Shown: positions 28,483 to 32,284, counted from the first letter of the stretch. The stretch: DNA of 64,000 nucleotides from a bacterium (GCA_965261595.1 CBDHDG010000006.1:32001-96000), one strand, 5' to 3'. Notes: generated from the sequence alone by a model not told the origin. Program-made: numbers and translations.

Positions 28483-28657
28483 CAAAAACTCCTTCTCGGC
28501 CCGCACCGGCCGGGCGCGCCATCGTTCACCGAATCCCCAATTATTTTACCATGAGTTCCGGAATTCATCCCACGGCGCTCCCGATTGGTAGTGGTCTAGT
28601 GGAGTTGACCCGGTTTGGTGGACACCTGATGATTTGGGGGTAAAGGAGGTGTTCACG

Positions 28658-28972
28658 ATGCCACAGACTCACCCACGCTATCCAATGGAGTTCCGCTGCC
28701 AGATGGTAGAGTTGGTCCGGGCGGGACGCACGCCCGAGGCGCTGGCGCACGAGTTCGAGCCCTCGGCGCAGACGATCCGCACCTGGGCCCATCAAGCCGA
28801 CGTTGACGAGGGGCGTCGCAAAGACGGGCTCACGAGCGATGAGCGGGAGGAGTTGCGCCGACTTCGCCGCGAGAACCGACAGCTCCGCCAGGAGCGGGAG
28901 ATCTTAGCAAAAGCCGCGGCCTGGTTTGCTCGGGATACCGATTCGATCCCGTCCGGATCTACGGGTTCGTGA
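28658..28972 (+). CDS. IS3 transposase OrfA
   Basis: HTH plus EELRRLRRENRQLRQEREILAKAAAWF. Slippery AAAAG at 28909-28913. Confidence 0.9.
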   Translation: MPQTHPRYPMEFRCQMVELVRAGRTPEALAHEFEPSAQTIRTWAHQADVDEGRRKDGLTSDEREELRRLRRENRQLRQEREILAKAAAWFARDTDSIPSGSTGS

Positions 28973-29817
28973 GGGCGAACCAGGCCATGTATCGGACCGC
29001 CACCATGTGCCGGGTGCTGGGCGTCTCCTCCAGCGGCTACTACGCGTGGCGCAGGCGCGCGCCGTGTGCCCGCTCGTGTGCCGATCGGGCGCTCACCAAA
29101 CGCATTCAGGCGATCCACGAGCGTTCTCGGGGGACTTACGGCGTGCCGCGCGTCCATGCCGAGTTGGAGGCTGAGGGAGTGCGTGTGGGCCGCAAGCGCG
29201 TCGCCAGGCTGATGCGTGGGGCGGGACTTGCGGGCGTCAGTCGGCGCAAGGGAGCGCGCACGACGCAGCGCCGGCAGGAGGCGCGGCCGGCCCCTGATCT
29301 GGTGGACCGCAACTTCACGGCCGAGGCCCCCGACCGGCTGTGGGTGGCCGACATCACCTACGTTCCGACATGGGCGGGGTTTTTGTATCTGGCCGTGGCG
29401 CTCGATGCGTTCAGCCGGCGCATCGTGGGGTGGTCGATGGCCACACACCTGCGGGCCGAGTTGGTGCTCGACGCGCTCGACATGGCGCTGTATAAGCGCC
29501 GTCCCCGGGCCGTCATCCACCACTCCGACCAGGGCACGCAGTACACCTCGGTCGCCTTTGGGCAGCGCTGCCGGCAGGCGGGCGTGCGTCCCTCCATGGG
29601 TTCGGTCGGGGACTGCTACGACAACGCGCTGTGTGAGAGCTTTTTCGCCACGCTGGAGTGCGAGCTCCTCGCTCGCCACAGTTTCCGCACCCGGGCCGAG
29701 GCGCGCATGGAGGTGTTCGGGTTCATCGAGGGCTTCTACAACCCGCATCGTCGGCACTCCTCCATCGACAACCTGTCACCCGTTAACTACGAAAGGAGAC
29801 AACAACGCACACCCTGA
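28969..29817 (+). CDS. IS3 transposase OrfB (DDE)
   Basis: WVADITY, HHSDQGTQY, DNALCESFF, YNPHRRHS. Confidence 0.93.
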   Translation: MRANQAMYRTATMCRVLGVSSSGYYAWRRRAPCARSCADRALTKRIQAIHERSRGTYGVPRVHAELEAEGVRVGRKRVARLMRGAGLAGVSRRKGARTTQRRQEARPAPDLVDRNFTAEAPDRLWVADITYVPTWAGFLYLAVALDAFSRRIVGWSMATHLRAELVLDALDMALYKRRPRAVIHHSDQGTQYTSVAFGQRCRQAGVRPSMGSVGDCYDNALCESFFATLECELLARHSFRTRAEARMEVFGFIEGFYNPHRRHSSIDNLSPVNYERRQQRTP

Positions 29818-29859
29818 AAACCCAAGTGCTTAACTCTCCACGAAACCGGGGTAAGTCCA

Positions 29860-29939
29860 CCATGGCTGCCGCCATATTTTCTGATTACATTGTCGTGAGA
29901 ATCAAGAACGTTCTGGACAGTCAAAAAAAATGGGGTCAT
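29860..29939 (-). pseudogene. N-terminal stub of a Doc/Fic-family toxin, cut by IS3
   Basis: ATG at 29939 gives MTPFFLTVQNVLDSHDNVIRKYGGSHG, matching the Doc N-terminus pattern (FLT...V..H...I..YGG..G). The frame enters the IS3 end at 29859. Not in the ORF track. Confidence 0.7.
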
Positions 29940-29948
29940 TTGGGCCGA

Positions 29949-29984
29949 AAAAAGGCCACAGCGAACACTCGCTGTGGCCTTTTT
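29949..29984. terminator. Perfect 16-bp hairpin with A/T tails between the antitoxin and toxin genes
   Basis: AAAAAGGCCACAGCGA-ACAC-TCGCTGTGGCCTTTTT. Confidence 0.75.
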
Positions 29985-30000
29985 CTCCTTCCTGGGAAAT

Positions 30001-30543
30001 CTATTTGGCTAGTGCCTCGAAATCCTTCCTGTATCTTGTGTGGATTTTCTCTCGGGCCCTTTCCAAAACCAATTCCCTTTGCTTTTTCATAACACCAGAA
30101 ACATCAAGGGGTTGATATTGCTCAGAACTCTTCATCGGGGCAGTCCCATAGACCTGTTGTAGGAATAGTCCAAATGAAAGGTGCCAAGTCTGACTAATCA
30201 ACTTCTTGAGCATGTCCCTAACCTCTTCAGGAAGATGTAAATCCTCTGGGGGTTTGGGAGCGATCCACTCATACCAACGTTTCCGTGTCCCAAATGGGGT
30301 CGTATCTGCCCAGACTTTTACTTTCTCTTCTTTTTCAAGGGTTTTCACGGACCCATCTGCGTCTGGAACAAATGGGCCGTAATCATCCCAAAACCATTGA
30401 ATATCTGTGAGTTGTTCCCCACGTCTCCATGCCCATTCGACATCGGCGAGATAGAGTAGTTTTGTAAGTCGAGCCCTGGTAAGCTCATCCGGCTTCGGGT
30501 ACTCTGAGATCACGAACGCCACCAAATCCTTTAACGTTGCCAT
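30001..30543 (-). CDS. Panacea (DUF4065/SocA/GepA) antitoxin with Phd-like C-terminal helix
   Basis: RLTKLLYLAD, WDDYGPF, VYGTAPM; C-terminus REKIHTRYRKDFEALAK. Confidence 0.85.
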   Translation of the reverse strand: MATLKDLVAFVISEYPKPDELTRARLTKLLYLADVEWAWRRGEQLTDIQWFWDDYGPFVPDADGSVKTLEKEEKVKVWADTTPFGTRKRWYEWIAPKPPEDLHLPEEVRDMLKKLISQTWHLSFGLFLQQVYGTAPMKSSEQYQPLDVSGVMKKQRELVLERAREKIHTRYRKDFEALAK

Positions 30544-30630
30544 TTGCCGACCCCTCCTAAATTCAATAGTAGTCCTCAAATTCAAGGCACGTCAAATCAT
30601 TTTCTGCATTGCGAAAAGAATATGGATATT

Positions 30631-30673
30631 TAGATACGTATCTATTGACAGGCAATATGTAATGGGCTATATT
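30631..30673 (+). promoter_or_regulatory. Sigma70 promoter with abutting palindromic operator
   Basis: TTGACA (30645-30650), 17-nt spacer, TATATT (30668-30673). Perfect palindrome TAGATACGTATCTA at 30631-30644. Confidence 0.75.
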
Positions 30674-30698
30674 GGTTATCGACACTGGGAGAAAAATC

Positions 30699-31139
30699 AT
30701 GAATTTCCTTGAATCCGTAGAAGCTCAAATCAAAATCCTCAAACACGAGGAAGCCATTGTCCTGAAAGAGATGGCACCGCTCCAGAACAAACTTGAGTTA
30801 ATGAGGCTCCAAATAGCCCACCTGGATGGGTATTTGACTACCCTTGGTTCAGGGGTGCTAGGCGGGGCAACCACTGAAAAAGAACCCATTACCGAAAAGA
30901 TTGTTCGTGTCTTTGAGCGTTCGAAAAGCCCCCTCCACTACATGGAGGTCATGGATTTGCTTGAAACGCAAGAGGGCTTCGTGCTGGGCGGTAAAGACCC
31001 CAAAGCCAATATGACCGCTAAGCTCGCTGGAAGCGCCAAGTTCAAGCGCCTGGAGCGTGGAGTCTATATCCTGTCGGAGTGGGCGGAAAAAGAGGAATCC
31101 CCAGCAAGTGAGGAACCTGCTGGGGATTCCAATGATTAG
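30699..31139 (+). CDS. Coiled-coil plus winged HTH (HARE-HTH-like) protein
   Basis: Heptad-rich N-terminus; KSPLHYMEV...GKDPKANMTAKL...FKRLERGVYILSEW; GGGAG RBS. Confidence 0.75.
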   Translation: MNFLESVEAQIKILKHEEAIVLKEMAPLQNKLELMRLQIAHLDGYLTTLGSGVLGGATTEKEPITEKIVRVFERSKSPLHYMEVMDLLETQEGFVLGGKDPKANMTAKLAGSAKFKRLERGVYILSEWAEKEESPASEEPAGDSND

Positions 31140-31140
31140 C

Positions 31141-31233
31141 GGCGGGGTGGCTGAGTGGCTTATAGCGTGGGATTTATAATCCCTTGGTCGGTGCTTACCC
31201 ACCGGCACGCAGGTTCGAATCCTGTCCCTGCCG
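31141..31233 (+). tRNA. Class-II (long variable arm) tRNA-like gene, anticodon UAU, Ser-like body
   Basis: Acceptor GGCGGGG/CCCTGCC; D arm GCT-GAGTGGCTTAT-AGC; anticodon arm (T)GGGA-TTTATAA-TCCC(T) with TAT at 31175-31177; variable stem GTCGGTG/CACCGGC; T arm GCAGG-TTCGAAT-CCTGT; discriminator G followed by CCT. Confidence 0.85.
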
Positions 31234-31247
31234 CCTATAATTTCTAG

Positions 31248-31282
31248 TGGGTCTCAAGGGTGCAGACACACCCAAGAGACCC
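31248..31282 (+). other. Stem-loop downstream of the tRNA-like gene
   Basis: GGGTCTC-aa-GGGTG-cagaca-CACCC-aa-GAGACCC. Confidence 0.5.
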
Positions 31283-31409
31283 TTGGTCACACCATCCGGG
31301 AGCACCCGAACAATGCAACCCGACACCCCTCAAGATACTCCTTTAAATCTGGAGAATCAAGCGGAATGTGACGGGCATTGCTCCTGGACCACCAAGGGAG
31401 CATCCGTCA

Positions 31410-32228
31410 ATGAACCGCCTTCACCGATCTCGACAGGTCCAGATTCTCTCAATGCTCACTGAGGGTGTGAGCATCTGCGCCATCTCCCGAATCACCGGAG
31501 TCCACAAGGTCACGATTCTCAAGCTCTTGAAGGAAACGAGCGAGAAGTGTGAGGCTCTGCTGGATTCCAAGATGCGGGATATCCCGGCAAAGGAAATCCA
31601 GGCCGACGAAATCTGGACGTACGTTGCTAAGAAGCAACGAAAAGTCCGAAGTTCCGATGGACGGGGGGTAGGCGATCAATTCATCTTCGTGGCCCTGGAA
31701 GCGGAAACCAAGCTCGTCCCTTGCTACGCCGTGGGGAAACGGGACGCCCTCACCGCCACTCGGTTCATGATGGATCTGCGACGACGGATTCAGGGCAGGG
31801 TGCAGTTGACCACGGATGCTTTCCGCCCCTATCCCGATGCCGTTGAAAGGGCTTTCGGGGCGGATGTGGATTACGCCCAACTCATAAAGGCGTTCCGGTC
31901 CAATGGATTCACAAGGGAGGTCTACAACCCAAGCGATATAATTGAGACAATCCCGATAACCATAATGGGAAACCCGAACAAGCGGTCAATCTCAACCAGC
32001 TACATTGAGCGGCAGAATTTGACCATGCGGATGCAGATGCGCCGCCTCACTCGGCTGACGAATGGATTCAGCAAAAAGCTGGATAACTTGAAGGCGGCCT
32101 TGGCGTTACACTTCGCCTGGTACAATTTCGGGCGGATTCATCAGACCTTGAAGGTCACGCCCGCGATGGAATCGGGGATCACGGACCATCTGTGGGGATG
32201 GGAAGATATCATGGATTGGTCAAACTAG
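31410..32228 (+). CDS. IS1-family transposase (single ORF)
   Basis: N-terminal HTH, IQADEIWTYV, VGKRD, LTTDAF, STSYIERQNLTMR..RRLTRLTNGFSKK; the stop lies in the right IR. Confidence 0.92.
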   Translation: MNRLHRSRQVQILSMLTEGVSICAISRITGVHKVTILKLLKETSEKCEALLDSKMRDIPAKEIQADEIWTYVAKKQRKVRSSDGRGVGDQFIFVALEAETKLVPCYAVGKRDALTATRFMMDLRRRIQGRVQLTTDAFRPYPDAVERAFGADVDYAQLIKAFRSNGFTREVYNPSDIIETIPITIMGNPNKRSISTSYIERQNLTMRMQMRRLTRLTNGFSKKLDNLKAALALHFAWYNFGRIHQTLKVTPAMESGITDHLWGWEDIMDWSN

Positions 32229-32284
32229 ACCACTACCTCCCGATTCTCCGGCTTGCCGGGAAGGCGTCCGACCCACGCCGAAAG

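Follow-up and report, generated by a model that had tools for sequence, protein, structure and literature searches.

The 64,000-nucleotide (nt) stretch of bacterial DNA analyzed here (GCA_965261595.1 CBDHDG010000006.1:32001-96000; "the window") carries at positions 28587..32237 a single 3,651-bp insertion of the insertion sequence (IS) family IS1, with passenger genes that include a class II tRNA with the anticodon UAU upstream of the transposase gene. The transposase contains four AUA codons (159, 177, 183, and 185), and all lie in one β-hairpin (residues 153 to 186), while none of the 15 Ile codons outside it is AUA. We consider it possible, with a confidence slightly short of even, that this tRNA miscodes the element's own transposase and thereby serves as a brake on jumping. 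If true, the transposon controls itself through deliberate mistranslation. Allo-tRNAs and other off-code bacterial tRNAs have been without an assigned function since 2017. Here the question becomes open to simple reporter tests, since the carrier is defined (an IR-bounded IS1-type element, where IR is inverted repeat) and both a target (a few codons within a single hairpin of the transposase) and an RNA switch are predicted.

A preliminary description of the window had proposed one IS1-type insertion with passenger genes, delimited by 13-bp IRs and an 8-bp target site duplication (TSD), and each of these elements was confirmed. The IR GGTAGTGGTCTAG occupies 28587-28599 on the plus strand, its complement ends at 32237 (right IR, 32224..32237, minus strand), and these two ends are the only matches with ≤1 mismatch in the 6.17-Mb genome. 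The IRs of two relatives, loci L001 and L097, match at 19/24 and 18/24 bases. Copies of the TSD, TCCCGATT, lie at 28579..28586 and 32238..32245. At empty sites the target is present as a single copy: in a genome of the same genus (G001), the flanks are joined over GCCCGATT, which matches the TSD at 7 of 8 letters, and in two of four runs a contig joins 28577 to 32237, skipping 3,659 letters, i.e., the element plus one TSD. The empty form thus also exists in co-occurring strains, and run X3 contains both the filled and the empty form. The insertion is flanked by a methyltransferase gene and ispH; an extended −10-like sequence, TGGTAAAAT (28530-28545, minus strand), just upstream of ispH suggests that the element has probably not deprived this gene of its own promoter.

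The transposase (31410..32228, plus strand) is encoded by a single open reading frame (ORF) of 272 amino acids. It scores 27.7 bits against Pfam PF03400 (cut-off 24.1), and its best NCBIfam match is IS1, at 72.9 bits, below the cut-off of 100. D66, D136, and E200 are invariant in 102 aligned rows, and the modeled fold matches DDE transposases (alignment-based model with a predicted local distance difference test score [pLDDT] of 89; a single-sequence fold with a pLDDT of 33 was discarded). Terminal IRs of the IS1 family start with GGT, as do those of this element, although the left one has been cut to 13 bp; the 8- to 9-bp duplication and empty site expected of the family are also present. The likeness to IS1-family ISs with passengers includes GGT-starting IRs, an 8-bp TSD, a DDE transposase with IS1 hidden Markov model matches (one above and one below its cut-off), and passengers inside one IS; the single ORF differs from the two frameshifted ORFs of the classical InsA/InsB type. 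ISMhu11 is an example of the passenger-carrying IS1 subgroups. Like a transporter IS (tIS), the element holds its passengers within a single pair of IRs; the TnCentral preprint restricts tIS to IS1595 and IS66. No description of tRNA cargo in tIS or IS1-family elements was found in the literature examined.

The tRNA gene (31141..31236, plus strand), recognized in the preliminary description as tRNA-like with a UAU anticodon, was found by ARAGORN and scores 54.2 bits against the Rfam tRNA model. Its 7/5 fold has a long variable arm, G73, G1-C72, G2-C71, a canonical 7-nt anticodon loop, and a tRNA-Ser D loop, a serine-type body that had previously been overlooked; its 3′ end is CCT, and CCA is not fully encoded. 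ARAGORN calls it tRNA-Ile, which, if the proposed reading is true, is an example of how annotation tools mislabel such genes. ARAGORN reported four more long tRNAs elsewhere in the host genome, all of which appeared spurious when inspected. Six UAU copies are available, all with the long arm, G73, and G1-C72 and five with G2-C71. In their alignment, fitted to a model built from four of the same six copies, 97.5% of cells are paired and 13 of 20 pairs are altered on both sides, and this covariation indicates that the fold is under selection. The population variants A31207C and T31229C repair both weak pairs of the window tRNA.

Serine identity rests on the long arm and G73, independently of the anticodon (PMC9976931). 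The window tRNA carries the whole serine set (long variable arm, G73, G1-C72, and G2-C71), and these identity elements make charging with serine by the host seryl-tRNA synthetase (SerRS) most likely. Among the tRNAs of the host, tRNA-Ser(UGA) scores highest against it, if only narrowly (75 versus 73). The host possesses tilS and three CAU tRNAs and so does not need a UAU tRNA to read AUA; an extra AUA supply for a lysidine-free host was ruled out for this reason. It is highly improbable that the tRNA is charged with isoleucine, helps to translate the AUA cluster, and promotes transposase synthesis. The four AUA positions, read as Ile, do lie in mostly hydrophobic or variable columns, and U12-A23 occurs in five of the six UAU copies and C29-G41 in three. 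Ile-charged UAU tRNAs are also said to exist in lactic acid bacteria. However, the discriminator of tRNA-Ile is A73, and the G73, G4-U69, and G29-C41 of the window tRNA contradict the Escherichia coli Ile set (including C4-G69 and C29-G41). Furthermore, the tRNA bodies of sister elements, classed by eye as Ser, Leu, or Arg type, carry other anticodons that do not match them.

For comparison across relatives, the best 80 of 525 genome matches, the best 80 of 539 metagenome matches, all 17 viral matches, and loci of the phylum were taken, giving a deduplicated set of 173 loci, 156 of them with ≥450 bases upstream. An off-code tRNA or tRNA-like gene lies upstream of the transposase in 46 of these 156 loci, as assigned by hand, and the accompanying protein cargo varies; 21 are full-length tRNAs (some degenerate) and 26 are short, one locus having both. 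The short RNAs, with a reduced D arm and the loop UUACA, lie ∼35 to 110 bases before the transposase (L004, L014, L020, L022, L024, L029, L039, and others) and match no Rfam family at the gathering score.

In the 15 elements with readable sense anticodons, codons cognate to the tRNA number 31 in residues 153 to 186, versus 15.2 expected, and are scarce outside this stretch (15 versus 30.3 expected; 13 versus 22.8 without L108). This test excluded the pair of elements with a UUA anticodon, three degenerate copies, L026, and the partial locus L105. The stretch was picked post hoc, and the analysis was therefore rerun with a sliding window, which placed the best window at 155 to 188, with family-wise P values of 0.005 (15 elements), 0.009 (11 elements, one per clade), and 0.025 (10 elements, the window excluded). 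In the separate short-RNA clade, codon 159 is GTA in 25 of 25 members, the sole invariant codon among 36 conserved fourfold columns; where no tRNA was detected, GTA accounts for 12 of 56 Val codons. It is also GTA in all three further short-RNA carriers and in one of five members of the clade in which this RNA was not detected. Elements with a UAG anticodon have CTA at both 158 and 216 (3/3), as do two loci without a detected tRNA, and all three CCA codons of the L098 transposase are inside the same hairpin. The tRNA of L098 (6509-6596, minus strand) combines a leucine-type body with the proline anticodon UGG. Ser is absent from the most frequent residues listed for the window's four AUA columns, so serine is not the native residue there. 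Serine as a residue that the transposase needs was rejected on the same ground.

The proposed course of events is as follows. A passenger-carrying IS1-family element inserted between the methyltransferase gene and ispH and was later struck by the abundant IS3 of the host. The tRNA, most likely serylated by the host SerRS, would read AUA and put serine into the β-hairpin between the catalytic residues D136 and E200, sparing the remainder of the protein. The product would be an impaired transposase with an intact DNA-binding N terminus, which may act as a brake on all copies. More tentatively, IS1-family elements may run a private, swappable genetic-code patch, consisting of a tRNA whose body contradicts its anticodon, a matching codon that is kept in the transposase hairpin and avoided elsewhere, and an antisense gate, with miscoding setting the ratio of active to inhibitory transposase. 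Under this reading, a transposon would encode missense decoding that occurs naturally and serves a purpose.

Several observations weigh against self-directed miscoding. Selection would have to maintain a codon that harms its own gene. The whole-gene count of cognate codons is unremarkable (34 versus 29.1; permutation P = 0.16; 12 elements), and in homologues without a detected tRNA, AUA is already frequent in the hairpin (99 of 332 Ile codons, versus 130 of 1,265 outside); CCA is likewise raised there even without a tRNA. A Bacteroidota clade, in most members of which no tRNA was detected, often has AUA at position 177. All four AUA codons of the window are kept in L001, yet 12 of 16 other Ile codons are kept as well. 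The hairpins of L111, L097, L005, and L007 lack cognate codons altogether, and the codon tests compare related, nonindependent elements with hand-set tRNA labels. Contigs of RNA run X16 cover parts of panA, the helix-turn-helix (HTH) gene, and the leader and none covers the tRNA, although such contigs are uninformative on expression. Finally, all six allo-tRNA(UAU) variants tried as amber suppressors were inactive and two of them were lethal (PMC5389517).

A rival reading is an uncharged or slow tRNA mimic that stalls or frameshifts the ribosome at the hairpin codons, yielding a short InsA-like repressor, or a mere mark at which RNase P/Z cleavage releases the leader of the transposase. The short class, lacking a normal D arm, keeps GTA at 159 followed by an invariant K160; the L002 anticodon loop is enlarged, and several copies (L060, L071, and L137) are degenerate. 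Mukai et al. favored nontranslational roles for allo-tRNA(UAU) (PMC5389517). Nevertheless, a mimic of either kind seems unlikely for the window tRNA, with its canonical 7-nt loop, intact serine elements, and covarying stems, and a matching anticodon would be needless for a cut mark.

The window tRNA was also compared with the allo-tRNAs of Mukai et al. (2017; PMC5389517), described as inserting serine with Leu anticodons and, in the case of allo-tRNA(UAU), as lying near transposon and toxin-antitoxin (TA) genes, an account repeated in a review (PMC7609411). It shares with allo-tRNA(UAU) the long variable arm, G73 (G73 or U73 in allo-tRNAs), a nonserine UAU anticodon, and transposon and TA neighbors. 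Allo-tRNAs, however, have an 8/4 or 9/3 acceptor branch and a tetraloop D arm, whereas the window tRNA is 7/5 with a tRNA-Ser D loop; it is therefore not an allo-tRNA proper, although by its features it would work like one. Missense serine insertion was demonstrated for allo-tRNAs with other anticodons (PMC5389517). In the parts of that study examined, neither an IS family nor a codon match nor an antisense RNA is mentioned, and its supplement does not contain the words "transposase," "IS1," or "antisense." The tRNA of L097 looks allo-type, has a UAA anticodon, and matches the tRNA-Sec model. Nematode nev-tRNAs (PMC3333845), which reportedly also combine class II bodies with the anticodons of another amino acid, are eukaryotic, chromosomal, and leucine type. 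Passenger-carrying ISs, Panacea-based TA pairs, allo-tRNAs, and antisense control are all known kinds, and it is their coupling that appears to be undescribed in print; a literature search, with most subscription journals outside its reach, yielded no publication in which a tRNA carried by an IS was matched to codons of the transposase.

Between the tRNA and the transposase lies a leader with features of antisense control. A conserved hairpin (GGTG...CACC; 31249..31282, plus strand) is followed by a copy of the transposase ribosome-binding site (RBS) and start region (repeat 1; 31292..31315, plus strand) and by a hairpin that would hide the RBS itself (repeat 2; 31370..31412, plus strand; −15.7 kcal/mol). 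A predicted antisense promoter (TTGATT-17-TATCTT; 31332..31360, minus strand) has just 8 of 12 consensus letters and was missed by a stock promoter scan. Across the family, 65 of 156 loci have a minus-strand promoter-like site no more than 130 bases from the start of the transposase, versus a mean of 15.9 and a maximum of 25 in shuffled sequences and versus 5 inside the gene and 36 at 300 to 430 bases upstream in control zones. The predicted RNA of ∼240 nt (about 31325 to 31088) would span the tRNA, contain the complement of repeat 1, and end at an intrinsic terminator just 5′ of the tRNA gene (31094..31130, minus strand; −29 kcal/mol). Its 5′ part is predicted to pair with the transposase RBS better than all 73 of 73 control windows and ranks top in five of seven group members. 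This minus-strand RNA could form a second layer of the proposed brake, pairing with the RBS and annealing over the tRNA precursor. Small opposite-strand RNAs that block an RBS and have repeated target sites are known from IS10 (RNA-OUT) and phages P1 and P4 (C4/CI). Unlike these, the window RNA does not overlap the RBS but would pair with it by way of a repeat, and its predicted extent takes in a tRNA gene as well. An Rfam search of the leader and antisense RNA gave no family (nine matches at E ≤ 10, with only the tRNA above the gathering score).

In another rival reading, an RNA toxin or defense system, Ser-tRNA(UAU) would mistranslate AUA-rich genes generally, such as those of phages, plasmids, and AT-rich newcomers, and would be restrained by the overlapping antisense RNA in the manner of a type VIII-like RNA-RNA pair. 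In the window's group, five of six tRNA-bearing members share the minus-strand terminator just 5′ of the tRNA. In a heuristic set of host ORFs, AUA amounts to 12.9 per 1,000 codons in genes with a low GC content at third positions, versus 0.9 where it is high, and the codons read by tRNAs of the family (TTA, CTA, AGT, ATA, CCA, and GTA) are all among the 14 rarest. Cargo of relatives is often of the TA or restriction-modification type, and serine allo-tRNAs bearing Leu anticodons proved lethal to E. coli (PMC5389517). However, a general toxin leaves unexplained why codons are fixed at one spot of the transposase. The antisense RNA would be ended by a terminator before the tRNA in L132, L124, L005, and L007, no terminator was found in L099, L111, L217, and L004, and 110 of 156 loci have no detected tRNA. 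We regard this role as improbable.

The preliminary description instead joined the tRNA to a leftward Panacea-Doc TA pair as one translation-targeting defense or addiction module. Twenty-nine of the 173 loci are bounded by IRs and a 7- to 8-bp duplication, with lengths of 1.8 to 5.6 kb. In 24 annotated bounded relatives (67 of 118 ORFs scanned), the cargo includes Gp49/HTH TA-like operons, restriction-modification genes, and many unknowns. Co-occurrence of the HTH, tRNA, and TA cargo was borne out in one case: L097 (2,868 bp) has the exact window order, doc-panA-HTH-tRNA-transposase, intact, and the proposed layout thus recurs. It is the only one of the 24 with panA-doc, and its allo-type tRNA differs from that of the window. 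The closest relative, L001 (1,772 bp; 90% transposase identity), has the HTH gene, a truncated tRNA, and a UAU tRNA without TA genes. The window's group of eight (Shimodaira-Hasegawa approximate likelihood ratio test value, 91; not starred) includes six tRNA carriers with four different anticodons. By this distribution, the tRNA tracks the transposase and not the toxin. Across relatives, the leftward protein genes are exchangeable, while the core stays constant: the HTH gene, a slot for a tRNA, a leader under predicted antisense control, and the transposase. PanA-Doc pairs have been validated in other systems (PMC8832971), but with doc destroyed in this copy (see below) and panA homologues found in just 2 of 51 genomes from the phylum, counting that of the host, a joint module is very unlikely and, for this copy, largely refuted.

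The doc gene is cut by a nested IS3-family element that the preliminary description overlooked (28600..29859, plus strand; 1,260 bp; orfA, 28658-28972; orfB, 28969-29817; 353.7 bits in NCBIfam, cut-off 160). It abuts base 13 of the left IR on one side and doc codon 26 on the other and has no TSD. The host genome (G000) contains 31 full-length copies at 97.6 to 100% identity, 19 of them, the nested copy included, without a TSD, which suggests a very active IS3 and many IS-driven rearrangements. Only a 26-codon 5′ stump of doc remains (29860..29939, minus strand; codons at 29939-29862); it aligns with the N terminus of the intact 146-amino-acid Fic/Doc protein of L097 (Pfam Fic, 43.1 bits), and the remainder was not found in the host genome (tblastn; best E value, 0.6). 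Most of doc was lost along with the inner portion of the left IR, probably through an IS3-driven deletion. The break is unlikely to be an artifact of misassembly, as contigs of two studies cross from the IS3 into the stump, and one contig runs from ispH through the IR into the IS3. The break-spanning contigs enter the repeat by 27 to 29 letters, less than the 31-letter bridging rule, and 247 loose ends fall outside the listing, so an intact doc allele may exist in the population. The copy analyzed here has no working TA pair.

The antitoxin half of the proposed pair survives, orphaned. The panA gene (30001..30543, minus strand) is intact, with an ATG start at 30543 behind AGGAGG; its product matches Pfam SocA_Panacea (DUF4065) at 29.7 bits (cut-off 25.7) and is 44% identical to the PanA of genome G005. 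Its promoter-like site (TTGACG-18-TACTAT; 30566..30595, minus strand) is weak, at 9 of 12 matches and near chance level. The order of the two genes, with the Panacea antitoxin leading and the doc-type gene behind it, resembles PanAT systems (PMC8832971), from which the arrangement differs by the 26-codon toxin stump and by a terminator-like hairpin between the genes (29949..29984, minus strand; 16-bp perfect stem and T-run). In L097, panA and doc abut. The TA part of the element is thus ordinary and, in this copy, dead.

The rightward unit starts, as predicted, at a σ70 promoter (TTGACA-17-TATATT; 30645..30673, plus strand; 11 of 12 matches) that precedes the HTH gene, tRNA, and transposase. 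The assignment of the coiled-coil and winged-HTH gene (30699..31139, plus strand) to HARE-HTH is weak (16.2 bits, cut-off 25.9); the matching genes of two related elements pass the cut-off. Its product is a probable regulator. No relatives of the protein were found in viral contigs, cognate codons form no consistent pattern in five HTH genes, and PADLOC matched neither this protein nor PanA, the two intact cargo proteins of this copy.

Other relatives carry further unusual cargo. UUA (ochre-reading) anticodon tRNAs lie upstream of the transposase in L115 (3068-3150) and L128 (4407-4491), whose transposase genes stop with TAG and TAA, respectively. Arginine-like bodies, judged by eye, with ACU, CGA, or CGU anticodons occur in L005 (5728-5803), L007 (5789-5861), L026 (5141-5214), and L108. 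A conserved cargo protein of ∼100 amino acids with the motif YAWSSP...RRYYAVL is present in many bounded elements (L004:4477-4782, L010:4876-5187, L014:3884-4183, and others), and the two copies scanned had no Pfam match. A three-gene cargo in L002 (1540-3183), L014 (4183-5744), L020 (4223-5760), and L099 (2130-3791) encodes a Gp49-like toxin (Pfam match in two of four), an XRE-type HTH protein, and an unknown protein of ∼220 amino acids. L006 (4949-5752) carries a proteasome-subunit-like gene (Pfam E value, 2e-6, in L006 only), with similar ORFs in L004 and L011. In the host genome, related IS1-type transposase fragments are located at C6:1074345, C6:1542113, C7:658750, C7:792598, C4:217654, and C5:174857.

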